This document shows, in pieces, positions 21,382-58,954 of a stretch of DNA of 64,000 nt; the stretch's first letter is position 1; every line of letters begins with the position of its first letter. The notes beneath the pieces are model-generated. The model worked only from the letters and a program-made list of their open reading frames with translations. It did no database searches and was not told the DNA's origin. Made by a program: the position numbers and the translations under genes. Source of the stretch: Pseudomonadaceae bacterium (GTDB taxonomy: Bacteria > Pseudomonadota > Alphaproteobacteria > UBA2136 > UBA6156); NCBI GenBank assembly GCA_024236095.1, contig JACKLD010000013.1, positions 142,368 to 206,367 on the forward strand, in the 5' to 3' direction.

Positions 21382-21519
21382 CCCGTCATTGCGAGGAGCA
21401 CGCGCCTCCGCTGCCGCAGAAGGCTCTGCCGGTTGTCGCGCGCGGACGCGGCAATCCATGCGCGGGTGCAGAGGTGGATTGCCGCGTCGGTCGCGTTGCG
21501 CCCTCCTCGCAATGACGGG
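21382..21519. mobile_element. MITE-like palindromic element, copy A (17-bp terminal inverted repeats cccgtcattgcgaggag / ctcctcgcaatgacggg plus an inner inverted repeat gcggcaatccat / gtggattgccgc)
   Basis: TIRs and inner IR read directly; related copy at 58769-58954 shares cgtcattgcgaggagcacgcgcc and cgcgcggacg(c/t)ggcaatccatgc. Confidence 0.75.
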
Positions 21520-21549
21520 GGTATTTGCAAATTGCGGAGGCAAGGGCTA

Positions 21550-21840
21550 ATGAAACAGGCTGCGACATACATCATGACCAACAAACCCAAAGGCACGCTT
21601 TACGTCGGCATGACCGGGCACTTTCCCGCCCGCATCCAACAACACCGTGAGGGTTCCGGGAGCGCCTTTTGCAAACGCTACGGCTTGGGCAAACTGGTTT
21701 GGTATGAATTGTTTGAGTTGGTAACAGATGCCATCCGGCAGGAAAAACAAATCAAAGCGGGCTCTCGCAAAGACAAAATTGCACTGATAGAATCCGTCAA
21801 CCCGAGATGGAACGACCTCTATCTAACCCTCAACGCTTAA
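21550..21840 (+). CDS. GIY-YIG nuclease-superfamily protein (YhbQ/Slx1-like, 96 aa)
   Basis: [29 protein letters not shown] is a canonical GIY-YIG motif; RBS ggagg; inside listed ORF 21433..21840. Confidence 0.8.
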
Positions 21841-21859
21841 CCTGAAAGAAAGAAAACCC

Positions 21860-22744
21860 ATGTCCATTTTCATCACCGAAGACACCAAAGTCATCACCCA
21901 GGGCTTTACCGGCAAGCACGGGACGTTCCATAGCGAACAGGCACTGAAATACGGCAGCCGTTACGTGGGCGGCGTCACCCCTGGCAAGGGCGGAACCGAG
22001 CACCTCGGCTTGCCGGTGTTCGATACCGTGGCTGAAGCGGTGGCTGCCACCGGTGCCGAAGCCAGCGTCATTTACGTGCCGCCGCCGTTTGCCGCCGACG
22101 CCATTTTGGAGGCCGAAGCCGCCGGCATCAAAATCTGCGTGTGCATCACCGAGGGCATCCCCGTGCTGGATATGGTGAAGGTGAAGCGCAAGCTGATGGA
22201 CCCCAAATGCACCATGCGGCTGATCGGCCCCAACTGCCCCGGCATCATTACCCCCGGCGAGGGCAAAGGCTGCAAAATCGGCATCATGCCCGCTTACATC
22301 CACAAAAAGGGCAAGGTGGGTGTGGTCTCCAAGTCCGGCACGCTTACCTATGAGGCGGTCAAGCAAACCACCGATGTCGGCCTTGGCCAATCCACCTGCG
22401 TGGGTATCGGTGGCGATCCTGTCCCCGGCACCAACTTCATTCAGGTGCTGGCGGCGTTCGAGGCCGACCCGCAAACCGAAGGCATCGTGCTCATCGGCGA
22501 AATCGGCGGCATGGCGGAAATCGAAGCAGCCGAGTATATCAAAAACGCCGTTACCAAGCCGGTAGTGGCCTTTATCGCCGGAGCCAGCGCACCCAAGGGC
22601 AAACGCATGGGACACGCGGGCGCCATTATTTCCGGAGGCGACGACACCGCCGCCGCCAAAATCGATGCGCTGAAAAAGGCGGGCGCCACCGTGGTGGCCA
22701 GCCCCTCCGATCTCGGCGCCGCGATGAAGCAGTTGCTGGGGTAA
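21860..22744 (+). CDS. sucD: Succinyl-CoA synthetase alpha subunit
   Basis: 294 aa; CoA-binding and phosphohistidine loop ([10 protein letters not shown]). Confidence 0.95.
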
Positions 22745-22765
22745 GTCTTTTTACATAAGTGATGG

Positions 22766-22802
22766 GCGTGGCGTAAGGGGGTATGACCCCCTTACGCCAC
22801 GC
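22766..22802. terminator. Long perfect hairpin between convergent sucD and flgC (gcgtggcgtaagggggt atga acccccttacgccacgc)
   Basis: 17-bp perfect stem; no U-tract; likely a bidirectional terminator or REP-like element. Confidence 0.5.
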
Positions 22803-22863
22803 GCAATCCGGAGCCCATTTCTGGTGCCATATAAAGCCCTAAATCCATTTCTTCTTGAAGATG

Positions 22864-23277
22864 TTAGCGCAACATGTCCAGCGTCCGTGTCGCCATCTCC
22901 CGTGCGGTCACCAGCGCGGTCATGTTGGCTTCGTAGCTGCGCTGGGCTTCGCGCATGTTGATGTTCTCGGCCGTGCTGTCCACGTTGGGATACATCACGT
23001 AACCTTGCGCGTTGGCCAGCTTGTTGCCGGGTTGGTAAACGGGCTTCAAGGGCGATGTCATGTCTTTGCTAACGCCGCTCACCTGCACCTCGGTGGCGCC
23101 GGTGGCACGGTTGAGCACGCTTTGGAAGAATATCTGCTTGGCGCGGTAGGGCCCGCCCGCATCCTCGGCGCTTTCCACGCTGTCGGCGTTGGCGATGTTT
23201 TCGCTGGCCACGCGCATGCGCATGCTTTGCGCCGCCATACCGCCTGCCGAGATGTTCATGTTGGTGAGCAAATCCAT
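22864..23277 (-). CDS. flgC: Flagellar basal-body rod protein FlgC
   Basis: 137 aa; MDLLTNMNISAGGMAAQSMRMRVASENIANADS...YPNVDSTAENINMREAQRSYEAN. Confidence 0.92.
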   Translation of the reverse strand: MDLLTNMNISAGGMAAQSMRMRVASENIANADSVESAEDAGGPYRAKQIFFQSVLNRATGATEVQVSGVSKDMTSPLKPVYQPGNKLANAQGYVMYPNVDSTAENINMREAQRSYEANMTALVTAREMATRTLDMLR

Positions 23278-23301
23278 GGTACTTTCTCCCTGACGCTATG
23301 T

Positions 23302-23694
23302 TTATTGTTGCCGTCCGATGGCCAGGCGCTGCATGGAAGCCTGTTTGGCGTAAAGCTGGGTCATGTAGCGGTAGTCAATTTGGGTCTGGTTCATTTTCAC
23401 CAGTTCGTTGTCCAGCCGCACGGCATTGCCGTTGTGCTGGATGTAGCTGGCACTTTCCATCAAACGGTTGCTTGCGCCACTGGCGCCACCCGCCATGTGC
23501 TTGGGGTTGGTCAGACGCACGCCCATGTCGCTTTGGGCGCGTTCCAAGTAGGGAGCAAAAGCCAGCTCGCGGGGCTTGTATTCCGGCGTGTCGGCGTTGG
23601 CGATGTTGCCGGCAATCACCCCCTGCCGGTCGGTCAGGTAGTTCATGCGGGCGCTCAGCGCCGCGTGGATGGAAGGCTGGGCCGTGGTCGGCAT
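23302..23694 (-). CDS. flgB: Flagellar basal-body rod protein FlgB
   Basis: MPTTAQPSIHAALSARMNYLTDRQGVIAGNIANADTPEYKPRE...; RBS aagagga; start at 23694 inside listed ORF 23302..23922. Confidence 0.9.
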   Translation of the reverse strand: MPTTAQPSIHAALSARMNYLTDRQGVIAGNIANADTPEYKPRELAFAPYLERAQSDMGVRLTNPKHMAGGASGASNRLMESASYIQHNGNAVRLDNELVKMNQTQIDYRYMTQLYAKQASMQRLAIGRQQ

Positions 23695-23730
23695 GGCGGT
23701 TCCTCTTTCTTGTTCTCTCCGTGTTCCCAT

Positions 23731-23748
23731 ATGCAGGCAGCGTGCCAA
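23731..23748 (-). promoter_or_regulatory. Sigma54 -24/-12 promoter for flgBC (minus-strand reading TTGGCACgctgcCTGCAT)
   Basis: Reverse complement of 23731-23748 matches TGGCAC-N5-TTGCA; -12 lies about 38 nt upstream of the flgB ATG. Confidence 0.6.
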
Positions 23749-23767
23749 CTTTGAGAGGTTGGGCATC

Positions 23768-23785
23768 TTGGCACGCTCCCTGCAT
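23768..23785 (+). promoter_or_regulatory. Sigma54 -24/-12 promoter for flgI-flgJ-flgN-like (TTGGCACgctccCTGCAT)
   Basis: Matches TGGCAC-N5-TTGCA; mirror image of the minus-strand element 20 bp away; -12 about 30 nt upstream of the flgI RBS. Confidence 0.6.
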
Positions 23786-23812
23786 TTGCTTACCCGAACA
23801 AGGAAGACGCGT

Positions 23813-24937
23813 ATGAACAAACTGCTTACCACCCTGCTTGCCTGCCTGCTGGCGCTGCCGGTTTTGGCCGCCCCGACGGTAAAGATCAAAGACCTCGCCG
23901 AGGTGGAAGGCGTGCGCGACAACGTGCTGGTCGGCTACGGGCTGGTGGTCGGCTTGGCCGGCACCGGCGATAGCCCCAACGGCATCCCGTTCACCCGCCA
24001 AAGCCTCGCCAACATGCTGCAACGGTTAGGGGTCAATGCCAAAGACGTACTGTCCAACATCAAGACCAAAAACGTCGCGGCGGTGATGGTCACCGCCAAA
24101 CTACCCAGTCTGGCGCGGCAAGGCAGTAGCGTGGACGTGACGGTCAGCAGCCTTGGTGACGCCAAAAGCTTGGAAGGCGGCCTGTTGCTGGCCACGCCGC
24201 TGACCGGCGCCGACGGCCAAACCTACGCGGTGGCACAGGGTGCGATGGTCATCGGCGGTTATCAGGCCACCGGCAAGGATGGAACCAGTATTTCCAAAAA
24301 CCATACCACTGTGGCGCGCATCGCCAAGGGGGCTACGGTGGAGCGTGAAACCGGCTTCGAGCTTGCCAGTCTGGGGGATAGCCTGAAGTTCATGCTGCGT
24401 GAGCCCGATTTCACCACCGCCGTGCGCATGCGCGATGCCATCAATGCCGCCTTCAAGGAAAAACTTGCCATCGCCCGCGACAACAGCACCGTGGACGTAA
24501 CCGTGCCGACCCGCTATCAGCAACAGCTGGCGGCGATTATCGACAAGATTGAAAACCTGCGGGTGGAGCCAACCACCGACGCCCGCGTGGTGATCGATGA
24601 AAAGACCGGCACCATCGTGATGGGCGAAAACGTGACACTGGCGCCGGTGGCCATCTCGCACGCCAACCTCACCATCAAGGTGGTGGAAGAGCAGTTGGTC
24701 AGCCAACCGTTCAGCTTCAACGTGGCGGGTGAGACGGTGAAAATCGACCGCACCACCGAAATCAGCGTGGATGACGATCCCGACCACGGCAAGTTCAAGA
24801 TGCTGAAGGGCTCGGCCAGCCTGGCCGATCTGGTCAGCGGCCTGAATGCACTGGGAGTGAAACCGCGCGACGTCATCTCCATCTTGCAGAACATCAAGGC
24901 GGCCGGCGCGTTGAATGCCGAGCTGGTGGTGCTGTAA
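23813..24937 (+). CDS. flgI: Flagellar P-ring protein FlgI
   Basis: Signal peptide MNKLLTTLLACLLALPVLAAP; VRDNVLVGYGLVVGLAGTGDS...; RBS aggaag; inside listed ORF 23645..24937. Confidence 0.93.
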   Translation: MNKLLTTLLACLLALPVLAAPTVKIKDLAEVEGVRDNVLVGYGLVVGLAGTGDSPNGIPFTRQSLANMLQRLGVNAKDVLSNIKTKNVAAVMVTAKLPSLARQGSSVDVTVSSLGDAKSLEGGLLLATPLTGADGQTYAVAQGAMVIGGYQATGKDGTSISKNHTTVARIAKGATVERETGFELASLGDSLKFMLREPDFTTAVRMRDAINAAFKEKLAIARDNSTVDVTVPTRYQQQLAAIIDKIENLRVEPTTDARVVIDEKTGTIVMGENVTLAPVAISHANLTIKVVEEQLVSQPFSFNVAGETVKIDRTTEISVDDDPDHGKFKMLKGSASLADLVSGLNALGVKPRDVISILQNIKAAGALNAELVVL

Positions 24938-25296
24938 TGGCCGCCATATCCGCCCCCGTCATCAACCCCGCGCTGGCCGCCGCCGTGCCGCAGGCCACCA
25001 AGGACAAGCTGCAAGGCAAGGCCCGCGAGTTCGAGGCGTATTTCATTCAGCAGTTCATCAGCCTCACCCGTCCCGATATGTCGGATAACGAGGTGTTCGG
25101 CGGCGGTTTTTCCGAGCAGGTGTACGGCACCATGATGGACGAGCAGATGGCCACCGGCATCGCCAACCGTGGCGGCTTTGGCATCGCCAACCGCGTCTAT
25201 GCCGAGATGCTGCAGGCGCAGGCGGCCACGCTGCCTCCTGCTGCCGCCGTGGCACAAAATTATACCCCGCAACCCCAACAAGGAGCCCGCCCATGA
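24937..25296 (+). CDS. flgJ: Flagellar rod-binding protein FlgJ (N-terminal rod-binding domain only, no muramidase)
   Basis: 119 aa; EFEAYFIQQFISLTRPD...GGGFSEQVYGTMMDEQMATGIANRGGFGIANRVYAEML; start overlaps the flgI stop (TAATG). Confidence 0.8.
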   Translation: MAAISAPVINPALAAAVPQATKDKLQGKAREFEAYFIQQFISLTRPDMSDNEVFGGGFSEQVYGTMMDEQMATGIANRGGFGIANRVYAEMLQAQAATLPPAAAVAQNYTPQPQQGARP

Positions 25297-25742
25297 GCCA
25301 TACCCCCCAACCCGGCATCATTATCCAAATGATGGAAGCGCGCCAAGCCTGCCGCGACTTGATGGGCCTGATGGTCGAAGAAAACAACGGCCTTACCCGC
25401 AACAGCACCCACGAGGTGGAAACCCGCCTGCAACTGAAAAAGCGCCTGGCCCTGCGGTTGGAAAAACTGCTGGCCGATATCAAGAGCCAACGGGCCGACT
25501 TCCGTGGCAACCGGGAGGTGGAAAACCTTGCCGTGCGGCTGGCTGAAGAGATTGCGGTGTTTCAGGATATCGCCGCCAAAAACGAGCTGATGCTGCGCGC
25601 CGCCCACCGTTTGCGTGCCGACGTGGTGGCGGTGATCCGCGATACCATCGAGGCCAGCCAACCCCGCGTGCAAACCTACAACGCCCACGGCGCCAGCACG
25701 GTGGGAACCGCCGGCACCACGGTGGTGGCGACAACGGTGTGA
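25293..25742 (+). CDS. Flagellar-cluster protein, FlgN-like helical chaperone candidate
   Basis: 149 aa; start overlaps the flgJ stop (ATGA); coiled-coil-rich helical sequence; assignment by context only. Confidence 0.5.
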   Translation: MSHTPQPGIIIQMMEARQACRDLMGLMVEENNGLTRNSTHEVETRLQLKKRLALRLEKLLADIKSQRADFRGNREVENLAVRLAEEIAVFQDIAAKNELMLRAAHRLRADVVAVIRDTIEASQPRVQTYNAHGASTVGTAGTTVVATTV

Positions 25743-25760
25743 AAGGAAACTCTTGGCATG

Positions 25761-25788
25761 AAGAAGGGGGCACTGCCCCCTTTCTTCG
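25761..25788. terminator. Bidirectional hairpin between convergent flgN-like and fliW (gaagaaggggg cactg ccccctttcttc)
   Basis: 11-bp perfect stem. Confidence 0.55.
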
Positions 25789-25851
25789 TGCTTTCCCACA
25801 AAGACAAAAACAAAGGGAGTCAAGCCCCCTTTGCGCACAACCATACCGCCA

Positions 25852-26316
25852 TCAAATCTTATGCTGGGTCGTATAATCCTTGTTGGAGAGAATATACTGT
25901 ACGCCGGTGCGCTTGGAGCTGTCGATGAGGATCGGCGCCTTCAGGTTGGCGGTCAGGTAGTAGCTGTCGCCGTTGTCGTACAGGGTGAGGATGCTCAACA
26001 GCTGGGTGTCATCCTTGGGGAAGTTGGTTTCGATCATCGCCTCGCTGCTGTCGGCTTCGGCAATCTTCAGGCCCAGAATGTTCGGGTCGGCCACCAAAAA
26101 GGCCACTTCCGGCGCATTGACGCATTGCATCAGCAAAATCGGGCTTTCATCCACGTTGGGCAGGCGGGTCAGGCCAAACTGCGTGCACTCACGGAAGCCG
26201 AACAGCCCTTGCGGGAAGTCGATCAGGCGATCCTTGCGCAACGAAACCTCGCCGAAGCGGGTTTGGAAGGTCAGCTCTTCGCCCGCATCGCTGGTCATCA
26301 CTTGGGGGTTATTCAT
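25852..26316 (-). CDS. fliW: Flagellar assembly factor FliW
   Basis: ELTFQTRFGEVSLRKDRLIDFPQGLFGFRECTQFGL...FLVADPN is the FliW family pattern; start chosen at ATG 26316, overlapping the csrA stop by 8 bp. Confidence 0.8.
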   Translation of the reverse strand: MNNPQVMTSDAGEELTFQTRFGEVSLRKDRLIDFPQGLFGFRECTQFGLTRLPNVDESPILLMQCVNAPEVAFLVADPNILGLKIAEADSSEAMIETNFPKDDTQLLSILTLYDNGDSYYLTANLKAPILIDSSKRTGVQYILSNKDYTTQHKI

Positions 26317-26617
26317 CGTCGTCGCTCCCGTGGTTATGGTGGTTGTTGTGCTCATCGCGCCCGTCTCCGTTGGTTGTTGTTAAGGTGGAAGAGGTTGGCA
26401 AACGCCGCAAAACATCGCCCAAGGGGGCGCCGCTGCCAAGGGCGGCGGCTTTGTTCTCGGCCTGGATTTTGGTAAACAGCTCTTCGCGGTAGACGGTGTT
26501 TCCTTGCGGAAACTCGAAGCCCAGCTTCACCCGTCCGCCACGGATATCCACCACCTTCACGGTGATATCGCCATTGATGACAATGGCTTCGCCGGGGCGT
26601 CGGGTTATCAGCAGCAT
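26309..26617 (-). CDS. csrA: Carbon storage regulator CsrA with His/Asp-rich C-terminal tail
   Basis: MLLITRRPGEAIVINGDITVKVVDIRGGRVKLGFEFPQGNTVYREEL is the CsrA fold; the extra about 45 aa ends ...GRDEHNNHHNHGSDDDE. Confidence 0.85.
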   Translation of the reverse strand: MLLITRRPGEAIVINGDITVKVVDIRGGRVKLGFEFPQGNTVYREELFTKIQAENKAAALGSGAPLGDVLRRLPTSSTLTTTNGDGRDEHNNHHNHGSDDDE

Positions 26618-26675
26618 AAACGGGTCTCTTGGCTTCGGTAGGGTTGATGATAAGGGTCTGGCTCATGTTATACGC

Positions 26676-27587
26676 TTACCTCAAATAATCAAGCAGGCTG
26701 AGTTGGTTGACGCGGGTGATAATCAACATGCTTGCCTCCATGGTGGCCTGTTGCTGGCTGAAGCGGGTCAACGCTTCGGCCACGTCGACCTTTTCCAGTC
26801 CGTCAAGCTGTTCGCCCAGAAATTGCTTTTGCGCATCGTGGCGGGTGTTGATCTGCTCCAGCGTGTTGATCTGCCCGCCGATGCGTCCTTGCACCACCGC
26901 AAGGTTCTGGCGGGCGCTGTCGAGCGCCGCCACCGCGCTGTCGATATCGGACAGCGAGTTGTTCTGCATGCCGTACCACAAGGCTTCCAATCCGGCTTTC
27001 AGCTCCATGAAGGCTTGCTCGTTGCCCGCCACCCCGTACTGCAGGCTGCTGCCCGGGCCGGTAGAGACGGTGGGGGGCGTCGCATCACCGTTGTACCACG
27101 TGCTGGCCAGCGGCAGGCCGGGGAAGGCGGTGGCGGTGGGCGCGCCGCTCACCGGCTCGTCATCGCCATCTTGGCCGGAGAAGATGTAACTGCCTTCAAA
27201 CTTGGTCTTGAACAGGTTGTAAAAGGTATCGGCAATGGCCTGCACCTTGGGGGCGAGGCTTTGGCGGGTGCTGGCGCTGTTTTCGTTGCGGCCCAAGGTG
27301 GCCACGCTGGCGGCTTCCGAAAGCAGGTCGACCATGCCCGCCAAGGCGTTCTCGGCCGAGTTGAGGCGGTTGGTGGCGGTGGTGATGTTGCTTTGGTACA
27401 CGTCGGTGCGGGCCAGCACGTCGCGCAACGACACAATCTGGTTGCTGCTCTCTGCGGTATCGGCCAAGCGGCGGCCGGTGTTGCCGGAGGTGACCTGATA
27501 GCTGGTCAGGGCCAAGCCCTCGTTGGCGGTTTGCAGGTTCCGCAGGTTGGTTTGGTTTTGGAAATAGGTGGCGATACGTGTAACCAT
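26676..27587 (-). CDS. flgL: Flagellar hook-associated protein 3 FlgL
   Basis: 303 aa; flagellin-like N- and C-terminal helices (...QQATMEASMLIITRVNQLSLLDYLR). Confidence 0.88.
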   Translation of the reverse strand: MVTRIATYFQNQTNLRNLQTANEGLALTSYQVTSGNTGRRLADTAESSNQIVSLRDVLARTDVYQSNITTATNRLNSAENALAGMVDLLSEAASVATLGRNENSASTRQSLAPKVQAIADTFYNLFKTKFEGSYIFSGQDGDDEPVSGAPTATAFPGLPLASTWYNGDATPPTVSTGPGSSLQYGVAGNEQAFMELKAGLEALWYGMQNNSLSDIDSAVAALDSARQNLAVVQGRIGGQINTLEQINTRHDAQKQFLGEQLDGLEKVDVAEALTRFSQQQATMEASMLIITRVNQLSLLDYLR

Positions 27588-27592
27588 GGTGC

Positions 27593-29410
27593 TTACCTCA
27601 CAATGCCTAACAGGGTGTCGAACAGGTCGTTGACGACGGTGACGATGCGTGCGCTGGCCTGAAAGCTGTTTTGGTACACTAGCATGGTGGCCAGTTCTTC
27701 ATTCACGTTGACGCCGGACAGGCTGCTTTGCAGCTCGGCAATCTGGGTATCGATGGTTTCGGCGAAGGCTTCGCGGCTGTTGGCGTCTTTGATGGTCACC
27801 GCCAGTGTGGAGACGATGCGCCCCACATAGCCCGCGCTGTTGACGTTCTGCGCGCTCAAATCACCGGCGGCACCGAAGCTGAGAACCGTATCGGCCAACT
27901 GGCTGAGCGCCAGCATGTTGGCGTTGCTGCGCGAGGAAAGTCCGCCGTCTTCGGCGCGCATCCGACCCACGGCCACCAAATCGGGGTTGGTGGCGATGTC
28001 GCTGCGCACGGCGATGTCGTTGCTGTCGGCGCCGGTGAAGAAGTTGTTCATCCCCAACAGCCCCAGTGCGTTGCCGCTGACGTTGGACAGCACCACGTAC
28101 TGTCCGGCCGTTTGGGTTTGCAGGCGTATGATCGGGTCGCCGTTGCTGTCGGTGGTGGCGGTGGCGGTAATACCCAGCGTGCCGCCCAGCGTGGTGTTGC
28201 CCACGTCGGCGTTGCCGTTGATGAGGGTGGCCAAATCGTCCAGCGAGAACGGCCCCACGCCGGGGATGGCAATGGCGCCGCCGTTGCCCAGCGTGGTGGC
28301 GATGACATCACCCTGGCTGTTGACCACGCTGGCATGGAAGGTGGCGCCCGCAAGGCTGGCGGAAAGCTCGGTGAACAGGTCGGTGGCGGTGGTGGTGACG
28401 CCGCTGGTGCTGCCGCTTTGCAGCGTGGCCACTGGCGGGATGGCGCTGCCTTGGCTGTGCAGGCTGTTGAAGGCGGTCATGAAGGTGGAGGTAAACTCGT
28501 TCAGCTCGGCCAACAGGTTGGGGATGGTCGTGTCGCGCACGTCGATCAGGGCCTTGATGCGGCCGGTGCTCATGCTGTTGGTGTAAAGCGGCGTGGTGTT
28601 GGGGTCGAGACTGCCGTCTACCTTCACGTTTTGCACGACAATGTCGCCAAAAGGCCCGCTGCCGCCCACCCGCTTCAGCTGCACGTAGGTGCCTTCGTCC
28701 ACCAGCTTGCGGCCGTTTTCGGTGAGGATGCGCAGGCTGCCGTTCTGCGAGGTGGAGACCTGCAAGCCGAAACGCTTGGCCAGCTCGTCCACCTGGATGG
28801 CGCGGGCGTCCTTCAAATCGTTGGTATTGGCACCGTTGGCGGTATTGGCGTCTTGCGTGGCAATCTCCACGTTCAGGTCGTAAACCCGCTTCAGGATGGT
28901 ATTGATGCTGGTCAGCTCGGCGGTAATTTGGTCGTCGATGCGCTGCTGCACGTCATCCATGTCTTGGCTGATGCCGCGGATGGTGTCGCTCAGCAGCACC
29001 GCGCTTTGCACCGCGTTGCGGCGCAGGGCGCCGTCGGCGGGGCTGTTGGCCAGCTGGCTGGTGGCGGCGAAAAAGCCGTTGACCAGGTCTTCAAGGTTGC
29101 CGTCGGCGCTGGCGTTGCTGAAACTCCCCTCGATGTTATCAAGGAAGCTGCGGGTGGTGGTGGCGTAATCGAGGTCGGAGGCCGAGGTAAGCCCGCGCGC
29201 GGTGATGAAATTGTCGGTAATGCGCTGGATGGTGCCCAACTGTACCCCCGCGCCGAAGCCGTTGTAGGCCACCGCACTGTTTTGCGCCACTTGGCGCGTA
29301 AAGCCCTGCGTGTTGGCGTTTACGATGTTGTGGCTGATGGTGCCGATGCCGACCTGACTGTTCTGCAACCCGCCGGTGGCAATGCGAAGGGCGTTGGAAA
29401 GCGTGCTCAT
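27593..29410 (-). CDS. flgK: Flagellar hook-associated protein 1 FlgK
   Basis: MSTLSNALRIATGGLQNSQVGIGTISHNIVNANTQGF...; start at ATG 29410 inside listed ORF 27593..29470; no obvious Shine-Dalgarno sequence. Confidence 0.9.
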   Translation of the reverse strand: MSTLSNALRIATGGLQNSQVGIGTISHNIVNANTQGFTRQVAQNSAVAYNGFGAGVQLGTIQRITDNFITARGLTSASDLDYATTTRSFLDNIEGSFSNASADGNLEDLVNGFFAATSQLANSPADGALRRNAVQSAVLLSDTIRGISQDMDDVQQRIDDQITAELTSINTILKRVYDLNVEIATQDANTANGANTNDLKDARAIQVDELAKRFGLQVSTSQNGSLRILTENGRKLVDEGTYVQLKRVGGSGPFGDIVVQNVKVDGSLDPNTTPLYTNSMSTGRIKALIDVRDTTIPNLLAELNEFTSTFMTAFNSLHSQGSAIPPVATLQSGSTSGVTTTATDLFTELSASLAGATFHASVVNSQGDVIATTLGNGGAIAIPGVGPFSLDDLATLINGNADVGNTTLGGTLGITATATTDSNGDPIIRLQTQTAGQYVVLSNVSGNALGLLGMNNFFTGADSNDIAVRSDIATNPDLVAVGRMRAEDGGLSSRSNANMLALSQLADTVLSFGAAGDLSAQNVNSAGYVGRIVSTLAVTIKDANSREAFAETIDTQIAELQSSLSGVNVNEELATMLVYQNSFQASARIVTVVNDLFDTLLGIVR

Positions 29411-29420
29411 GGCCGGTGGT

Positions 29421-29437
29421 ATGCATAAGACGTGCCA
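29421..29437 (-). promoter_or_regulatory. Candidate sigma54 -24/-12 element for flgKL-csrA-fliW (minus reading TGGCACgtcttATGCAT)
   Basis: GG/GC spacing is 12 nt; the -12 sits only about 12 nt from the chosen flgK ATG, implying a leaderless transcript if real. Confidence 0.35.
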
Positions 29438-29470
29438 AGTAAGGCGGGAGAGTCTGTTAGCCCCTTCCAC

Positions 29471-29627
29471 CCAAACCCGCCCGAAGCCCCCTGAGGAGGG
29501 GGGTGCAAGGGGGAGGAGGTTTCCTCCTCCCCCTTGCCATCAAGAGTGAGGTTGGCCCGCAGGGCCAAGTTGCCGAGCCCGTAGGGCTTTAGGCAACGGG
29601 GAAAGCGCCTGCCCAACCCCCACCGCC
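29471..29627. repeat. About 157-bp intergenic repeat, copy 1, containing a 15-bp-stem GC hairpin (gcaagggggaggagg ttt cctcctcccccttgc) and a second hairpin (ttggccc gca gggccaa)
   Basis: Near-identical copy at 61960-62116 and a 5' fragment at 63410-63452; listed ORFs 29540..29878(-) and 62029..62409(-) share an identical C-terminus because of it. Confidence 0.85.
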
Positions 29628-29720
29628 TGCCTCAAGAGGCACCCAACCAACCGACCCCTTTGACAAAAGGCGCTAAACTGTATACTTTGCGCCTTGCATT
29701 CAACCAAGGAGTCCCCTGCC

Positions 29721-30993: not shown

Positions 30994-31007
30994 GGAAAGC
31001 AACCCCC

Positions 31008-35477: not shown

Positions 35478-35607
35478 GATGCCCCTGCCTGCATAAGTGG
35501 AAACGGGGGTGCAGGGAGCGGAAGACCCCTGCCGCCGCAGGCGTCATCCCCGCCCCGTGTTTATGCCACACCACCCAAAGACGGACAGCGGGGATCCATT
35601 GCGGTGT

Positions 35608-35640
35608 CAAGCTGGATTCCCGCTTTCGCGGGAATGACGC
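35608..35640 (-). repeat. dRS3/NIME-like repeat, copy 3 (reverse complement of 12793-12825: caagctggATTCCCgctttcgcGGGAATgacgc)
   Basis: Exact 33-bp reverse-complement match. Confidence 0.8.
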
Positions 35641-51058: not shown

Positions 51059-51113
51059 GAGCGCCACTCTAACAAAAAACCGCCCCGGTGGGGCGGTTTT
51101 TGCCAAAGGAAAA

Positions 51114-51521: not shown

Positions 51522-51603
51522 CCTTCTGTTATTGGCTGTTGCAACACATCGTTGCGCAGGGGGCAAAGGTTGTCAAATCAAATTGTGCGCCGCACAAAAT
51601 TTT

Positions 51604-52998
51604 TCAATCCCCCTGTTTTATGCTGGCCGCCTTCACCCGGCTGTTGCCGAAGACGTTGTTGTTCACCGGCGGCGCGGCAGGTTTGGAGCTGCCCGCCTGG
51701 ATGATTTTTTTCTCGATTTGCTGCACGTTGCTGGCGTATTTGGCCTCGGGCTTTTCAATCAGGTTGACGTTGTCGGCATAGCTGGCCTCGGGCTGTTCCA
51801 CCAGTTGGGTGGCGCTGGAGAGCAGGGGCTCCTTCCAGGCCAAACTTGGCGGGTGGCCCACCTTGTGCCAGTTACCGGTGGCAAAGCGGTCGGGACGGAA
51901 GGGCTGCATGTTGACCGCCGGTTGCTTGCCTTGCACCAAATCAGCCAGTACCCGTGCCGCACCGGCGGCAAAAGCGTAGCTGCGGGCACCAAAGCCGGTG
52001 GCGATGTACAAACCTTTCATCCCCTCCCAAGTGCCCAGTGCCGGGCGGAAATCCGGTGTTACCGCCGCCGTGCTGACACTGACCTGCTGCACCGTGGCAT
52101 TGGCCAGATGGGGCAGCAGCTCTCCCACATGTTGGGCCAACGCCTTTACGATCCGCTCGTCGGCATGGCCGCTGAAAGTGGCCTGCGTGGGGTCCATGAT
52201 GCCATCATACGCCAGCATCACCGGTCCTTCGCGGGTGCGCTTCAGCCACAAATGGCCGCGCCGCAGGCGGTGCATCAGCATCGGGAAGCCGATGCCCTCG
52301 GCGCTTTCCAAGGTAACCAGGTGGGTGCGCGCCGGACGGATGGGCAGGCGCGGCCCCACCGTTTTCAACATGCTGCCTGCCAAGGTGCCTACCGTAATCA
52401 GCGTGTGGGCGGCAAGGCAGGTCTCGCCGCTGGCCACCCGTACGCCGGTGAAGGTGTCGCCTTCGCTCAACAGTTCCACCACGGAATCCTGTCCCCAAAT
52501 CCGCACGCCCTTGGTGGTGAGTTCGCGGCGCAGGGTTTCCAGTGCGGTGTGGGTGGAAAGCACCGGTGCGTCGGCCCACCATTTGCCGCCGCGCACGCTT
52601 TCGGCCAGCGGGGTGTCGGCATGGGTGGCGGCTCCGGCAGCGTCTACCCATTGCGAGATGATCTTGCGGGGGCTCTCGCCCTGCACTTCGGCGGCCAGCA
52701 TGGTGGCGCGTCCGGCGCTGCTGGCGATATCAAGCAGACCGCGTTCGGCCAGCCCCACATCCACCCCGTAGCGTTTGCCGACATCTTGCCAGCAGCGCAG
52801 GGAATAATCGTACAGGCTGTCCAGCAGCGCGTCGCCGCCGATTGGCGCCATCTCGCCCACATGGGTGCGGATGGGCCCCGAAAAATCCTTGTCCACCAGC
52901 CGTACGGTCAGCCCGGCCTCCACCAGCTCGCGGGCGGCCAGCAGGCCCACGATGCCGCCACCCAGCACCAACGCGTCGACGGTATCGGCCTGAGTCAT
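51604..52998 (-). CDS. FAD-dependent oxidoreductase (DAO/glycine-oxidase-like) with repetitive C-terminal extension
   Basis: N-terminal Rossmann DALVLGGGIVGLLAARELVEAGLTVRLVDK. Confidence 0.85.
   Translation of the reverse strand: MTQADTVDALVLGGGIVGLLAARELVEAGLTVRLVDKDFSGPIRTHVGEMAPIGGDALLDSLYDYSLRCWQDVGKRYGVDVGLAERGLLDIASSAGRATMLAAEVQGESPRKIISQWVDAAGAATHADTPLAESVRGGKWWADAPVLSTHTALETLRRELTTKGVRIWGQDSVVELLSEGDTFTGVRVASGETCLAAHTLITVGTLAGSMLKTVGPRLPIRPARTHLVTLESAEGIGFPMLMHRLRRGHLWLKRTREGPVMLAYDGIMDPTQATFSGHADERIVKALAQHVGELLPHLANATVQQVSVSTAAVTPDFRPALGTWEGMKGLYIATGFGARSYAFAAGAARVLADLVQGKQPAVNMQPFRPDRFATGNWHKVGHPPSLAWKEPLLSSATQLVEQPEASYADNVNLIEKPEAKYASNVQQIEKKIIQAGSSKPAAPPVNNNVFGNSRVKAASIKQGD
51729..51812. 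repeat. Imperfect 42-bp tandem duplication within the 3' end of the oxidoreductase gene (encodes EQPEASYADNVNLI / EKPEAKYASNVQQI)
   Basis: Read directly on the plus strand. Confidence 0.6.
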
Positions 52999-53070
52999 GG
53001 GGCAGGTTGCTTTCTTTTGCCGCCAGAATAGCTTGACACGGCCGCGCCATCAAGGTGACTGTGCGGCACA

Positions 53071-53997
53071 ATGCACCAAGCTGCGCCATCTTGTCACGTT
53101 GCCACCCGCCGCCTGCCGGGGGCGCCGTTGCGGGCGGCACTGGCTGCGCAGGTGCCCGCCGCCGTGGCGGCACTTCCGGCGCCGCCCAAGCTGGTGGTGG
53201 TGCGGGTGGGCGACGATCCCGCCAGCAAAGCCTTTGTCGGACATAAGCTGAAGTTGTGTGCCGGTGTGGGGCTTCCCGCCGAAGAGCTTCACCTGCGCGC
53301 CGACGAGGCCGAAGCCACCCTGCATGCCACCCTGCGCGCCTTGGCCGATGATGACGCGGTGCAGGCCGTTATCCTGCAGTTGCCGTTGCCGGCGGGATGG
53401 CAGGTGGACGCGGCGCTCAACCTGATTCCGCCCCACAAGGATTGCGATGGCCTTACCGCCGCCAATATCGCCGCACGGCAGGCGGGGCACCCGCATATCG
53501 CTCCGGCCACCCCATTGGGGGTGATGCGTTTGCTGGCGTCCATCCCCTACGATGTACGTGGCAAGCACGTAGCGGTTATTGGCAAGGGACGCGTCGCGGG
53601 CCAGCCCATGCGCGAGATGCTGGAGGCCGCAGGCGCCACGGTTACTGCCATTGACCGCGATACGCCGACACCTGCCACGTTGACATCGGTGTGCGATGTG
53701 GTCATCGCCGCTGCCGGAGTGCCGCATCTGGTGAACGAGAACTGGCTGAAACCCGGTGCCCTCGTGGTGGATATCGGTCTCACCCGCGTGGAAGGCAATG
53801 GCCAGACCCGTCTGCTGGGCGATGTGGACGCCATGAAGGTCGAGGGGGTGGCCGCGTACCTGACTCCGGTGCCGGGCGGCGTGGGGCCGCTGACCGTGGC
53901 CAGCTTGCTGACCAACGTGGTGGACTGTGCCCGCCTGCAAGCCGGATTGCCGCCATTTGCATGGCAGGTTCCGTTGCTTGACAGCTCTGCCGTGTAG
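53071..53997 (+). CDS. folD: Bifunctional methylenetetrahydrofolate dehydrogenase/cyclohydrolase FolD
   Basis: LVVVRVGDDPASKAFV...DGLTAANIA...VIGKGRVAGQPM...TPVPGGVGPLTVA. Confidence 0.92.
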   Translation: MHQAAPSCHVATRRLPGAPLRAALAAQVPAAVAALPAPPKLVVVRVGDDPASKAFVGHKLKLCAGVGLPAEELHLRADEAEATLHATLRALADDDAVQAVILQLPLPAGWQVDAALNLIPPHKDCDGLTAANIAARQAGHPHIAPATPLGVMRLLASIPYDVRGKHVAVIGKGRVAGQPMREMLEAAGATVTAIDRDTPTPATLTSVCDVVIAAAGVPHLVNENWLKPGALVVDIGLTRVEGNGQTRLLGDVDAMKVEGVAAYLTPVPGGVGPLTVASLLTNVVDCARLQAGLPPFAWQVPLLDSSAV

Positions 53998-54013
53998 GCG
54001 CACCTTCTTGCCC

Positions 54014-54370
54014 ATGCGTATGCTGTTGTTGGTTCTATTACTGCTGTTGCCGCCGTTGGCGCAGGCGGTACCGTGCGTGATGACCCAACCCGCCGCCTAT
54101 CATGTTTCCGTGGCCAAACCTTGCGCCATGGCCATGCCTGCCGCGTCTGTCGCCAAACAGGCGATGAGCGTGGCCGAGTGCTTCAAGGCTCCGGCCACCG
54201 TGCCGCCGGCCCGTGCATTGCCGGTGTCGGCACCGTACGGTGTTGGGGCCATACCCATGCCGCCCGTTGTCGGCGCTGCATATCGCCTAACCCATGCCCA
54301 GCCACTGCGTCCGCCGCCGCTGGTATCGCCGCGACGCATGCTGGCCGACCAGCAGCGCTGGCTGATTTAG
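54014..54370 (+). CDS. Hypothetical secreted Met/Cys/Pro-rich protein (118 aa)
   Basis: Signal peptide MRMLLLVLLLLLPPLAQA; low-complexity mature part; ATG 54014 inside listed ORF 53927..54370. Confidence 0.35.
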   Translation: MRMLLLVLLLLLPPLAQAVPCVMTQPAAYHVSVAKPCAMAMPAASVAKQAMSVAECFKAPATVPPARALPVSAPYGVGAIPMPPVVGAAYRLTHAQPLRPPPLVSPRRMLADQQRWLI

Positions 54371-54449
54371 AGTTTCCCCGCCCCTGTTTTTTGCCTGCAC
54401 GGATAGGCCGTGCGGGTGTCATGATGATGACCAATGAAGGATAACCAAA

Positions 54450-54953
54450 ATGAATACTGCTAAACTCGCAACCTTGACCATTGCCACCTTGATGATGGCA
54501 GGCGTGGCTCATGCCGACCATATGGGCGACAAACCCTGCGACAAAATGCACGCAGGAAAACCCTGCCCGATGATGTTGCATCAGCAAGGCCATGGTGCCC
54601 ACGCGGGCCATGCCAAAGCCGGTGCGCTGAAGGGAGACAACGGCCCGTCCAGCCAAGCGTATGACCATGCCAACATGGTGATGCACCAGGGCATGGACAT
54701 CGTCTTTACCGGTGATGCCGATATCGACTTCCTGCGCGGCATGATCGCCCACCACCAAGGTGCGGTGGACATGGCCAAGGTACAGCTGCAATACGGCAAA
54801 AACGCACAGGTGAAGAAGCTCAGCCGTGAAATCATCCGCGCGCAAGAGCTGGAAATCAGCTGGATGAAGGGCTGGCTGGCCCAGCTGGAAGGCCGCCCGC
54901 ACACTGCCGACACCAAAACGTGGATTGGTGAAGACAGCATGCTTTACAAGTAG
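54450..54953 (+). CDS. DUF305-family periplasmic protein with His/Met-rich N-terminal stretch
   Basis: Signal peptide; HMGDKPCDKMHAGKPCPMMLHQQGHGAHAGHAKAG; DUF305 core DIDFLRGMIAHHQGAVDMAKVQL. Confidence 0.85.
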   Translation: MNTAKLATLTIATLMMAGVAHADHMGDKPCDKMHAGKPCPMMLHQQGHGAHAGHAKAGALKGDNGPSSQAYDHANMVMHQGMDIVFTGDADIDFLRGMIAHHQGAVDMAKVQLQYGKNAQVKKLSREIIRAQELEISWMKGWLAQLEGRPHTADTKTWIGEDSMLYK

Positions 54954-54966
54954 ATGCATGCTGCTC

Positions 54967-54999
54967 AAATAGCCCCCCGCAGGGGCTATTTTATTGTTT
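54967..54999 (+). terminator. Intrinsic terminator after the DUF305 gene (aaatagcccc ccgca ggggctattt tattgttt)
   Basis: 9-bp stem plus a T-rich tail. Confidence 0.6.
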
Positions 55000-55100
55000 G
55001 TTCGGTTTACTTATTGTTTCTTGATGCTTCGGGTGTTAAGTAAGGATGTACGCATGTAGGATACCCTGTATGCTGCGAATATAAATAAGGAGCAAAACCC

Positions 55101-55418
55101 ATGAAATCCGTTATTACCTTGGCGCTGCTCGGCGTGGTGGTTGCCACTGCCGCCTGTACCGCCCACAAGCCTTACCCTGACGTGCGCTACAAGACATGTC
55201 CGTTCGCCGGTGTGGAAATCATCGACCAGCGCGAGTGCTTGGCGATTGACAGCATCCACAACATCAGCCCGGACATCGGCCAGAAAGTGGACATGAACAA
55301 GGTCGACAACCGCAAGACCTACATCCACCGCAAGGCGCACTACCAGTGCAAGTTCGGCGGTACCAACCCGCACCACCACAACGGCATCGTCTACCACTCT
55401 TCTTGCTACGCCAAGTAA
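55101..55418 (+). CDS. Small Cys/His-rich lipoprotein, paralog B
   Basis: Signal peptide plus VATAAC; KTCPFAGVEIIDQRECLAIDSIHNI...HYQCKFGGTNPHHHNGIVYHSSCY; RBS aaggag. Confidence 0.65.
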   Translation: MKSVITLALLGVVVATAACTAHKPYPDVRYKTCPFAGVEIIDQRECLAIDSIHNISPDIGQKVDMNKVDNRKTYIHRKAHYQCKFGGTNPHHHNGIVYHSSCYAK

Positions 55419-55434
55419 GGGTGATGCCTACTGA

Positions 55435-55460
55435 CACAACGGCCCTGCGGGGCCGTTGTG
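55435..55460. terminator. Hairpin between the convergent lipoprotein B and P-loop genes (cacaacggccc tgcg gggccgttgtg)
   Basis: 11-bp stem; same core as the rpmG terminator. Confidence 0.5.
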
Positions 55461-57407
55461 TTATTCCTTCTTGCCAAGGCCGATCATCGCCACCCCGGCA
55501 AACCCTGCCAGTGCCAGCGTAAGCCCGATGGCCTGCCCCATGTTTTGGCTCATGGTGATGATCGCCCCGATGCCGCCAATCAGCCCCAACGGCAGCAAGA
55601 CGGCGAAGATCTGTTGGAGGCCGAAGCCTTCATCAAGCATCTGCAAGCCGCCGAACTTTGCAGGGTCTTGCTTCTTGGCCTGTTGCAGGGCGCGCTTTTG
55701 CATGGCGGCGATGCCGTGGGCCGGGTCGTCCATCAGCCTGTAGCTTCCCTCAAAGGCCGCCAAGATCTCCTGCACGGTGCTGAAGCCGCCGTTGCTGGCG
55801 GTCTGGGCAATCAGCGGGCTGTACAGAACGTTGGTCTGTCCGCCACGCCCCCATGCCTGGTACAGGCTGCCCAACACGTTGCTGCGCGGCATGAACTTCA
55901 GGCGCGGCTGGTTGCTGCCGGTGCCCGCAGCCAACAGGTGTTCAAGGCTCCAGCGTACAAACCACGGTTGCAGTTTGTCCCACAGGTCGGGGCGGATGCG
56001 CGCCTGCTCTTCTTCTTGTAAAACGGTCAGAAGACTATCGCACAGCGGCAAAAGCTGGGCATCGGCCACCACCTCGTCGGCAGGGAATGCCTGTGGTTGT
56101 CGCCGCTCGCGCAGCGGCGTCAACGTCACCGCCCACAGCCGCCAATAACTCATGCCGCTGTTGCCGAACAGGTGGCTGAGTTCCGGGTCGGGGTAACTTC
56201 CGGCACGCCAATACTGGGCATTCAGCGAGATGTTTAGCAAAATCTGGTCGAATGACGGTTTTGGTGCCCCTTCCGCCAATGTGTTCATATAGCGGCTGCG
56301 CACCAGCCATGGCATCTGGCTGGTTTTGACCGGCAATTGCGCCAGCTTGGGCGAAATCTCTTCGTATGTGGCATAGGCCCCGGCCAGCAAGCTCTCCATC
56401 TCGCTGACATGGGGCAGGGGTTCCTTGCGGTGCAGGCTGTCTTCCAGAATGCGCGGCCGCAGCAATCCCGCATAAATCGCGGCACCGCCCACAACGTCCA
56501 TCATCATGGTTTTCAGTTGCAACAGGTCGTCTTCTTGCCAGTGCTTGGGGTCGATCGCCGCCATTTGGGCCCAGGCCTTCAGGGGCATGCCGTGGTAGGC
56601 GGTCAGTCCTTCTTCGTTTTGCAGCAGGTTGACATGCAGCAACCCTGCATCGCGTATCCACATCATGGCGCGACCGCCGTCATGCTGGGCCTCGGTGGCC
56701 ACGCCATGGTAGCGGAAGTAAATCATGGTCGCCAAATCGTGCTTGTCGTTGGCGATCATCGCCTTTTGCGCATAATCACGGGCGTCGGGCAACACCTCGT
56801 TGTGGCCAAGACTCACCATGAAGTATTGGAACTGGCTCAATAAAAACAGCAGTGCATTGTTGTTGGGCTCGTTGCGCAGGGTGTTTTTCAGAATGGTATG
56901 AACATCGGTGTAGCGCTGCTCCAAGAAGGCCTTGTAGGCGTTTTTCAGTTTCAGCAGGGTGGTTTTTCCGGGGCCGGCCATCATCACGGCCTCGTCGCCG
57001 ATACGGCTGATTTCATGCTCGACCAACCCTGCAAAGTGCTGGCTCGGAGGTGCCAGCGCGGCGGCCTCGGCCGATGGGGCCGGTTGTATCAAAACGCGGG
57101 CAATGGCTTGTCCCAGCGCGGCGGCATAGCCGTTGCCCACTTGCGGGGCGGCAGGTGCCACGGTTGCAGCCTCGTCCGGCAGGCCGAACTCGGCAATGCG
57201 GCGGTAGGCGGTACGGTCGGCCTCGGCAGCCTGCTTGAGCAAAACCATGATCGCCTGTACATCGGCGGCCAGTTGCAGGCTGCGCAGGGTTCCCTGCGGG
57301 GCGTCGTCATCGCGCCTGCGCCGGATGTTGGACGTACGTGCATGCTTGGCTTGCTCGTCCAGTTTTCCGCGCAACTCCAGAATACCCTGCACCAGCCGAC
57401 GGCTCAT
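55461..57407 (-). CDS. Uncharacterized 648-aa protein with a Walker-A-like motif (AGPGKTTLL) and a C-terminal double transmembrane anchor
   Basis: Long ORF; start overlaps the stop of the upstream DsbA-like gene (ATGA); C-terminal IFAVLLPLGLIGGIGAIITM...IGLTLALAGFAGVAMIGL; no Walker B recognised. Confidence 0.7.
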   Translation of the reverse strand: MSRRLVQGILELRGKLDEQAKHARTSNIRRRRDDDAPQGTLRSLQLAADVQAIMVLLKQAAEADRTAYRRIAEFGLPDEAATVAPAAPQVGNGYAAALGQAIARVLIQPAPSAEAAALAPPSQHFAGLVEHEISRIGDEAVMMAGPGKTTLLKLKNAYKAFLEQRYTDVHTILKNTLRNEPNNNALLFLLSQFQYFMVSLGHNEVLPDARDYAQKAMIANDKHDLATMIYFRYHGVATEAQHDGGRAMMWIRDAGLLHVNLLQNEEGLTAYHGMPLKAWAQMAAIDPKHWQEDDLLQLKTMMMDVVGGAAIYAGLLRPRILEDSLHRKEPLPHVSEMESLLAGAYATYEEISPKLAQLPVKTSQMPWLVRSRYMNTLAEGAPKPSFDQILLNISLNAQYWRAGSYPDPELSHLFGNSGMSYWRLWAVTLTPLRERRQPQAFPADEVVADAQLLPLCDSLLTVLQEEEQARIRPDLWDKLQPWFVRWSLEHLLAAGTGSNQPRLKFMPRSNVLGSLYQAWGRGGQTNVLYSPLIAQTASNGGFSTVQEILAAFEGSYRLMDDPAHGIAAMQKRALQQAKKQDPAKFGGLQMLDEGFGLQQIFAVLLPLGLIGGIGAIITMSQNMGQAIGLTLALAGFAGVAMIGLGKKE

Positions 57408-58273
57408 GGTATCAGCTCCCGTTGGCGCGGGCGGTTCAGCTCGTACGTCACCACGTCATCCAGCGTTTCCAGCGGCAGGCCGTTCATCCCCACATGGATG
57501 CCGTTGACCAGAACATGGGGCGGGTTGCCCACGTTCAACTGTCCGGCCAGCCGCGCATCGGCATCCAGCTCGCGGTAAAAGCGGCGGGCTTCGGTTTGCA
57601 TCAGCCGCCGGGCCTCCAGCCGGTCCATACCGATGGCGATAAGCGTATCGAAATAGCTTTCCGGGGTGGGGTTTGCCAGCGTCTCCAGTGCGTTGCGGTA
57701 TTCCCAGAACACGCCGCCGCGCTGCGCAACCTTGCCGTAAAAGGCTGCCATGTTCACGTCGTTGAATTGCTTGACCGGCGTATGGATGTTCACCACCCTC
57801 AGTTTGCTGGGATGCGCCGCCAGCAGGGCATCCACTTTTTTCAGGGTGTCCATGCATTGCACGCAGGAAAGGTCTGTCATTTCAATCAGGGTCACCAAGG
57901 CGTCATCCGGCCCTTTGGCCGGGTTGTGGGAAAACGGGTTGAAGCGCAGGCGCGTCTGCAAAAAGTGCTTGCTGGCATCGGTTTGCAACTGTTCGGGGGT
58001 GGCGGCCAGCAGCTCCTGCTCGAACAGCATGTCGCTGGTAATCACCTGCTGGGCGCCGGTACTGACGTGGGGCAGGGTGGGAGTGCTGGTGAGAATCTTG
58101 CCGGTGTGCGAGCGCACCACGCCGCTTTCAGCCTTGCCGCCGCCATGGCCGCTCGCTTCTTTGGCTGGCCCGGCAGCAGGCTCGATGGCGGCCGCATCAT
58201 GGGTTTGCCACCACACCGCAGCAGGAGCCGCCAGCAGGGCCAACAACAGAAACGGCGTCAATCGGTGCAGCAT
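57404..58273 (-). CDS. DsbA-like thioredoxin-fold protein with signal peptide and unusual CVQC active site
   Basis: MLHRLTPFLLLALLAAPAAV; DLSCVQC...NPPHVLVNGIHVG is the DsbA-family pattern; start at 58273 inside listed ORF 57404..58435. Confidence 0.8.
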   Translation of the reverse strand: MLHRLTPFLLLALLAAPAAVWWQTHDAAAIEPAAGPAKEASGHGGGKAESGVVRSHTGKILTSTPTLPHVSTGAQQVITSDMLFEQELLAATPEQLQTDASKHFLQTRLRFNPFSHNPAKGPDDALVTLIEMTDLSCVQCMDTLKKVDALLAAHPSKLRVVNIHTPVKQFNDVNMAAFYGKVAQRGGVFWEYRNALETLANPTPESYFDTLIAIGMDRLEARRLMQTEARRFYRELDADARLAGQLNVGNPPHVLVNGIHVGMNGLPLETLDDVVTYELNRPRQRELIP

Positions 58274-58403
58274 GGGTATGGTTTTTTCAAAAAAATAGCG
58301 GGAATTGCCGCGCACAGCCATGGCACAATGCAAAGGCGGCCCATACCCTGTTGCCTGCCGCCCACGATGCCCGTATAACGGAGGCACAAGGGAGGAAGAA
58401 GCC

Positions 58404-58751
58404 ATGCCGTTCGTTGTCACCGGAAAATGCATCAAATGCCGCTATTCCGACTGTGTGGAAGTATGCCCGGTGGACTGCTTCTACGAAGGCGAAAACATGC
58501 TGGTCATCAACCCCGATGAATGTATCGACTGCGGCGTGTGCGAGCCGGAGTGCCCCATTGAGGCCATCAAGAGCGACGACGAGCTTTCCAACGACGAACT
58601 GCACTGGGCCGATGTGAACGCCAAATACAGCGCCACCTGGCCGAACATCAAGGAAACCCGTGGCCCGATGCCCGAGGCCGAGAAATACGCTGAAATGGGC
58701 GCGGAAGAGAAAAAGCCGATGTTCAGCGAGAAGCCGGGTGACGGGAAGTAG
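58404..58751 (+). CDS. fdxA: 7Fe ferredoxin (FdxA type)
   Basis: [18 protein letters not shown]...[12 protein letters not shown]; RBS ggagg. Confidence 0.9.
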
Positions 58752-58768
58752 GCAAGATAGCTTTTGCC

Positions 58769-58954
58769 CACGTCATTGCGAGGAGCACGCGCCCCTGCAG
58801 ATGCAGAAGCCCCCGCCATATTCCGCGCGCGGACGTGGCAATCCATGCAAGTGTTCCCAAAAACTAGATATCCCTATGTAAGATAGTCATGGATTGCTTC
58901 GTCGGTCGACAGGAAACCATGGCGCCTCCGGGGCGCTCGTCCTCGTAATGACGG
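58769..58954. mobile_element. MITE-like palindromic element, copy B (same termini as copy A; inner loop carries an about 45-bp AT-rich insertion)
   Basis: Termini cgtcattgcgaggagcacgcgcc ... gctcgtcctcgtaatgacgg; inner ggcaatccatg ... catggattgc. Confidence 0.7.

Follow-up and report, generated by a model that had tools for sequence, protein, structure and literature searches.

Among the small palindromic repeats of bacterial genomes, the CGTC-tagged repetitive extragenic palindromes (REPs) are recognised by an unpaired CGTC (or TGTC) tag, a stem base of A-T/T-A pairs and a 3-nt CCA tail (Di Nocera et al. 2013, PMC3733652). They are intergenic, occur mostly as head-to-head dimers, have stems of 8-9 bp with loops of 4-5 nt, and include dRS3 of Neisseria and RPE-4 and RPE-6 of Rickettsia; they "apparently lack a dedicated transposase", and bulged or unusual members fall outside the 2013 definition, as its authors note (PMC3733652). 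The second relevant system is the GIY-YIG nuclease family Ssn (CDD cd10448). Its 94-aa N. meningitidis member, SsnA, binds the NTS hairpin (CGTCATTCCCGCGMAVGCGGGAATCYRG) in one orientation and only when the DNA is single-stranded (ssDNA), and cuts a few nucleotides upstream of the hairpin (Chenal et al. 2025, Nat Commun 16:2388, PMC11893778). Cutting depends most on the three bases before the stem and binding on the C after it, the loop is dispensable and extendable in the assays, and both binding and cleavage are restricted to ssDNA, with no RNA binding (PMC11893778). Ssn homologues of other Neisseria species and of Wolbachia act alike, Neisseria Ssn reduces transformation by repeat-bearing DNA, and SRM repeats are present at 71% of the Ssn homologue loci; the same authors note a layout like that of an insertion sequence (IS), suggest domestication and raise a mobility hypothesis (PMC11893778). 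Here we compare with these systems two nested palindromes, elements A and B, and the 96-aa GIY-YIG gene next to A, which lie in a 64,000-nt stretch of an alphaproteobacterial genome labelled Pseudomonadaceae bacterium (GCA_024236095.1, contig JACKLD010000013.1, positions 142,368 to 206,367; hereafter the window, numbered from its first letter).

Elements A and B are probably head-to-head CGTC-tagged REP (SRM) dimers and the adjacent 96-aa gene an Ssn-family nuclease gene, with A as the repeat of the cassette and B as a decaying, gene-less copy. Judged by their letters, the two elements are best described as an expanded ATTGC-type variant inside the known repeat class, and the locus is a new example of a known system rather than a new kind of mobile element. 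The repeats were described as a class in 2013, without a dedicated enzyme, and characterisation of the enzyme family followed in 2025; to these, the present locus contributes a case from an uncultured lineage.

Sequence and fold of elements A and B

As the initial annotation had proposed, the palindromes A (about 21379-21522) and B (about 58770-58954) are nested and homologous to each other. Their left terminus, CGTCATTGCGAGGAGCACGCGCC, is the same over 23 nt, the ungapped identity of the first 82 nt is 82%, and the right terminus reads CCTCGCAATGACGG in A and CCTCGTAATGACGG in B. The view that they belong to a family of small, dispersed palindromic repeats, built of an outer and an inner stem, likewise holds. 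The inner inverted repeat GGCAATCCATG / TGGATTGC is common to A and B; the arm GGCAATCCATG was correctly assigned to both copies, but the partner proposed for it, c(a/c)tggattgc, fits B only, the actual partner arm being GGTGGATTGCC in A and CATGGATTGC in B. The insertion reported for the loop of B is also present, as an AT-rich segment of 40 nt rather than about 45, and the right arm of B additionally carries two insertions (9 and 12 nt) and one stem mutation. The folding energy as ssDNA is -62.6 kcal/mol for A (z = -9.7) and -43.8 kcal/mol for B (z = -4.65), with none of 200 shuffles equally stable in either case.

Each arm of A and B forms a separate hairpin unit, composed of C-GTC, ATTGC, a variable apical part, GCAAT and CCA, and in both elements a plus unit is followed by a minus unit with the ATCCA ends pointing inward, making a head-to-head pair (Table 1). 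The base stem is 5 bp; after it come an internal loop and private sequence of 20-55 nt. The expanded A/B subfamily is represented by two copies only, within the 64-kb window. B lies 18 nt 3' of the fdxA stop codon, between convergent genes, and the right unit of A is followed at 32 nt by the ATG of the GIY-YIG gene; the same distance spans 12-68 nt in doublet-flanked homologues.

The likeness between A and B runs beyond the right unit, with 15 of 22 positions agreeing between 58955-58978 (B) and 21520-21542 (A), the latter being the spacer ahead of the ssn start codon. From this sequence, B may be a remnant of a second cassette that lost its ssn gene.

The neighbouring GIY-YIG gene

The 96-aa protein matches the Pfam GIY-YIG family over residues 5-74 and retains the conserved residues Y7, Y18, R28, H32 and E65. 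Among 52 homologues, Y18 and E65 are invariant and Y7 is conserved in at least 90%; Y7, Y18 and E65 are, by position rather than by direct alignment, the counterparts of Y6, Y17 and E64 of N. meningitidis SsnA. An AlphaFold2 model shows one compact GIY-YIG domain (pLDDT, the predicted local distance difference test score, 94.9), for which the nearest solved structures are the UPF0213 protein 1zg2, Slx1 and the N-terminal domain of UvrC, the UPF0213 proteins being uncharacterised. No NCBIfam family scored above its cut-off for this protein, and its own family comprises 1,894 cluster representatives at E <= 1e-10.

In databases, the called length of many homologues is 120-170 aa, with the GIY-YIG domain beginning 30-80 residues in (P0241-P0390, and P0128, P0134, P0158 and P0161); the gene starts of these long calls were possibly placed inside upstream repeat units. 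Many of the contigs carrying homologues are only about 1 kb long, which is expected if assemblies break at repeats.

Distribution of the repeat and its association with the GIY-YIG gene

A scan of one genome per species with the pattern GTCATTGCGAGG-N40-66-GGCAATCCA recovered at least 119 genome stretches from many phyla, including Alpha-, Beta- and Gammaproteobacteria, Campylobacterota, Spirochaetota, Bacteroidota, Bacillota, Planctomycetota, Verrucomicrobiota and candidate phyla. The matched units are 28 nt (GTCATTGCGAGCGAAGCGAAGCAATCCA) or 34 nt (GTCATTGCGAGGAGCGAAGCGACGAAGCAATCCA) long, plus variants, and are arranged singly, as inverted pairs, in tandem or in arrays. The apex of the canonical unit is a d(GCGNAGC) mini-hairpin, in which variation falls at N or takes the form of a compensatory swap of the apical stem.

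Homologues of the window GIY-YIG protein were present in 8 of these 119 element-selected loci among the matches listed (E 1e-27 to 1e-49), always within about 150 bp of units and often between a plus and a minus unit. In a reverse test, the eight homologues were aligned and 80 metagenomic loci were fetched by protein similarity alone. Depending on the detector, 52 to 70 of these 80 loci contained units within 200-300 bp of the gene: a strict unit occurred at up to 300 bp in 52, with a density of 3.6 per kb near the gene versus 0.14 per kb in the far flanks, and an ATTGC-class signature occurred in 70, compared with 12% of the control windows. This motif signature replaced a relaxed detector which required a perfect 6-bp stem and performed poorly because the ATTGC stem has only 5 bp. 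Most of the protein-selected loci lacking the signature have other CGTC-type hairpins. The gene is tightly enclosed, the gap from unit to ATG being mostly 6-38 nt and that from stop codon to unit mostly 1-15 nt, and the two main layouts are unit-gene-unit and doublet-gene-doublet; between divergent loci, the likeness stops at the outer unit edges.

Protein clade and repeat type covary. ATCCA tails outnumber ATCT(C) tails 42:0 in one clade and stand at 1:17 in three others, and small protein clades pair with ATTCC or ATGGC stems. Apart from GIY-YIG, no recurrent gene family was found among the short cargo (<500 bp) between units; other open reading frames (ORFs) sandwiched by units were considered as cargo and rejected, being ordinary host genes or non-genes. 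The initial annotation had treated the GIY-YIG gene as mere context for A, but the 80-locus association and the published work identify it as the cognate partner of the repeats (PMC11893778). Given the findings of Chenal et al. (2025), this association analysis reproduces an already published link between GIY-YIG genes and repeats and is no discovery of our own.

The cassette also occurs in cultured organisms, namely Rhodopseudomonas palustris (CP076678.1) and Sphingobium sp. CAP-1 (CP046252.1). The ssn homologue of Sphingobium with its flanking units (10001-10291 of the retrieved locus L207) lies between a carboxyltransferase gene and genes for a glyoxalase-family protein and methylmalonyl-CoA mutase, in a propionate-utilisation operon. 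Together with sucCD in the window, this propionyl-CoA operon makes two cases of a cassette inside a co-directional metabolic operon.

Insertion between sucC and sucD

In the window, sucC ends at 21002 and sucD starts at 21860. Among the closest relatives found, the sucC-sucD gap is 12 nt in locus L211, whose SucD is 93% identical, and 10 nt in L202 (89%); the 857-nt segment separating the two genes in the window is therefore an insertion. With clean empty sites in relatives, it offers a usable natural case for studying whether the cassette moves. The same A/ssn locus was also recovered on one 1.2-kb read-assembly contig, among the matches listed.

Between sucC and A, the segment holds a lipoprotein-like ORF (21017-21334, 105 aa) with 36-46% GC compared with roughly 61% for the genome, which has no Pfam or NCBIfam match. 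Other relatives carry differing small secreted or membrane ORFs in the sucC-sucD gap (L201 3111-3488; L203 2352-3483; L208 1468-1845) or nothing, and one of these ORFs has a weak DUF2059 match. Small genes thus seem to have landed in the gap repeatedly. Since the small ORFs of the relatives are unrelated, the insertion in the window need not have been a single event or driven by the cassette.

Interpretation and alternative explanations

The 96-aa protein most likely cuts the A and B units, although their loops are far longer than those tested in vitro. By homology with the Neisseria and Wolbachia enzymes, an Ssn-like protein would recognise each unit only when its strand is single-stranded and folded into a hairpin, would read GTC, the three bases ahead of the stem, and the C that follows the stem, and would nick a few nucleotides upstream, just 5' of the CGTC tag. 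As for the cellular effect, ssDNA restriction is the function shown in Neisseria, and limiting recombination with incoming ssDNA is a possible role in this organism.

Several features weigh against placing A, B and the gene in the SRM-Ssn system. Repeats lie solely upstream of the window ssn gene, the sucD start following 19 nt after the ssn stop codon, and the A/B units bear inserts of 53 nt and about 20-40 nt instead of a loop of 3-5 nt. The published SRM search pattern, HGTCWYN(0-2)YYVSBRHN(0-5)WNVSBRGN(0-2)RNCYNB, misses the A/B units and also the canonical 28- and 34-nt ATTGC units, its only matches in the window being the NTS-type units at 12793-12820 and 35612-35639. In addition, the Fisher's exact p = 5e-14 for the pairing of clade and tail ignores shared ancestry. 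When the A/B and canonical ATTGC units are set against the pattern, head and tail agree, whereas stem composition and length differ. With greatly expanded loops and a stem type outside the published pattern, pattern-based censuses may undercount SRM repeats.

A further-reaching account holds that ssn and its flanking units form an active IS-like mobile cassette, and that Ssn also spreads gene-less dimers such as B, comparable to RAYT and the REPINs; we lean against it, while granting it appreciable weight. It would explain the 857-nt insertion where relatives have 10-12 nt, the unit-gene-unit and doublet-gene-doublet modules found in unrelated surroundings, whose homology stops at the outer unit ends, the continued likeness of A and B for about 22 nt past the right unit (15/22), and the private 53-nt insert common to both, which implies that the whole dimer was copied; the same hypothesis was raised by the authors of the Ssn study (PMC11893778). 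However, the GIY-YIG domain is a DNA-cutting domain not known to join ends, no target-site duplication was found, and no transposition event has been observed. The gene also lies between units in both convergent and divergent arrangements, and thus has no single fixed end structure, and, given the unrelated small ORFs in the sucC-sucD gap of relatives, the cassette need not have driven the insertion. It is in our judgement rather unlikely that the SRM-ssn cassette is truly mobile as an element, with its own gene and gene-less dimers alike spread by nothing more than a GIY-YIG single-strand nuclease, and with the sucC-sucD insertion and the private insert as the footprints of that mobility. If it were true, the 42-74-nt units would show that recognition needs only the tag, five basal base pairs and the tail.

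The placement of B behind fdxA and between convergent genes, together with the very stable folds and with the transcription and the location downstream of ORFs for which Di Nocera et al. argue in many REPs (PMC3733652), would also suit a role of A and B mainly as RNA, that is, as terminators, 3' stabilisers or small structured RNAs independent of the nuclease. We consider this improbable, and the corresponding suggestion in the initial annotation is not sustained. No T-run follows A or B and no terminator-like site (GC-rich hairpin plus T-run) was found at either, no Rfam family matched anywhere in the window at gathering thresholds, and a terminator at A, within the sucCD operon upstream of sucD, would be harmful; moreover, the conservation of tag and tail across phyla points to recognition by a protein, and Ssn acts on ssDNA and does not bind RNA (PMC11893778). 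Far less probable still is that A and B are classical miniature inverted-repeat transposable elements (MITEs), meaning deletion derivatives of a transposase-encoding IS with terminal inverted repeats and a target-site duplication. Long terminal inverted repeats, small size and at least two dispersed copies fit such an origin. The check for a target-site duplication proposed along with the initial MITE-like label found none at A, B or 20 related modules: the flanks of A, CCCCC and GGGGG, extend the palindrome, those of B are unrelated to each other, and no direct repeats border A, B or the related modules. The supposed termini are in fact two independent head-to-head hairpin units, of a self-folding kind also found singly, in tandem and in arrays, and the only recurrent gene in the short cargo between units is the GIY-YIG gene.

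Other repeats in the window

A generic unit detector (GTCAT plus 3 nt ... complement plus ATCCA) found six units in the window, compared with 0.14 expected in shuffles: three of the four A/B units, two copies of CGTCATTCCCGCGAAAGCGGGAATCCAG (at 12793 and 35612) and a variant at 35543 (Table 1). The units at 12793-12820 and 35612-35639 are identical to the Neisseria NTS consensus, though the genome is not Neisseria. A Neisseriaceae origin, which these dRS3-like units had suggested, was dropped in view of the SucD homologues, which indicate an uncultured proteobacterial metagenome-assembled genome whose labels are inconsistent. With NTS-type units present beside the ATTGC type, a second unit type coexists in the window, which has one ssn gene only. 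An unrelated 167-nt repeat is present as 95% identical copies at 29471-29637 and 61960-62126 and contains the perfect palindrome GCAAGGGGGAGGAGG-TTT-CCTCCTCCCCCTTGC; it has no Rfam match and may be another small dispersed element.

Table 1. Repeat units, the ssn homologue and the inserted segment, with coordinates in the window
Feature	Position	Strand	Evidence
NTS/dRS3-type unit CGTCATTCCCGCGAAAGCGGGAATCCAG	12793..12820	+	fits published SRM search pattern and Neisseria NTS consensus
857-nt inserted segment: low-GC lipoprotein-like ORF, element A, ssn	21003..21859	+	comparison with relatives
A left hairpin unit: CGTC tag, stem ATTGC/GCAAT, CCA tail, 53-nt private apex insert	21384..21458	+	82% identity to B left unit
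A spacer separating the head-to-head units	21459..21474	.	sequence, fold
A right hairpin unit, 42 nt; minus-strand reading CGTCATTGCGAGGAGGGCGCAACGCGACCGACGCGGCAATCCA	21475..21517	-	generic unit detector
ssn homologue, predicted 96-aa single-domain GIY-YIG nuclease	21550..21840	+	Pfam PF01541, E = 7e-12
Head-to-head pair: variant unit GTCATCCCCGC...GCGGGGATCCA (35543-35598, +) and NTS-type unit (35612-35639, -)	35543..35639	.	detector, SRM pattern
B left hairpin unit, 74 nt plus tag, intact	58771..58845	+	sequence, generic unit detector
B spacer with 40-nt AT-rich segment	58846..58889	.	A/B alignment
B right unit, degenerate: stem ATTGC -> ATTAC, two insertions	58890..58953	-	missed by strict detector

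Comparison with known systems

Like the Correia (CREE), ERIC and RUP elements, A and B are small intergenic palindromic repeats able to form long hairpins. Those elements end in defined inverted repeats and come with a target duplication, which for Correia is TA. A and B are not known to resemble them in sequence, and no such duplication was seen here; the initial separation of A and B from these families stands. With the REP/REPIN-RAYT (TnpA-REP) system, the locus shares short hairpin units with a conserved unpaired tag, an inverted pair as the copied unit, a small nuclease gene situated between its own repeats, and hairpins recognised as ssDNA. On the other hand, the tag of the RAYT system is GTAG rather than CGTC, and RAYT is an HUH/Y1 transposase which both cuts and joins, whereas Ssn is a GIY-YIG protein for which only cutting is shown.

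As in the intergenic CGTC-tagged REPs, all four A/B units have the tag, the AT-AT stem base and the CCA tail, with one stem mutation in the right unit of B, and A, B and the pair at 35543-35639 are all arranged plus-then-minus with their ATCCA ends facing, although A and B have a stem of 5 bp with a bulged, longer apex instead of a stem of 8-9 bp with a 4-5-nt loop. Compared with Ssn and its NTS/SRM repeats, the window differs in having an ATTGC...GCAAT stem and internal loop instead of the CCCGC stem of NTS, units which through their private apex inserts reach 42-74 nt and fall outside the published SRM pattern, repeats on one side of the gene only, and an uncultured proteobacterial metagenome-assembled genome as host. 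Ssn enzymes are under development as ssDNA tools, and the long-loop natural units are candidate substrates for defining the minimal recognition element. In common with that system, the window encodes a GIY-YIG protein of about 95 aa that consists of this one domain and has identical catalytic residues, and oriented hairpin repeats, with CGTCAT as head and ATCCAG as tail, lie close against its gene.

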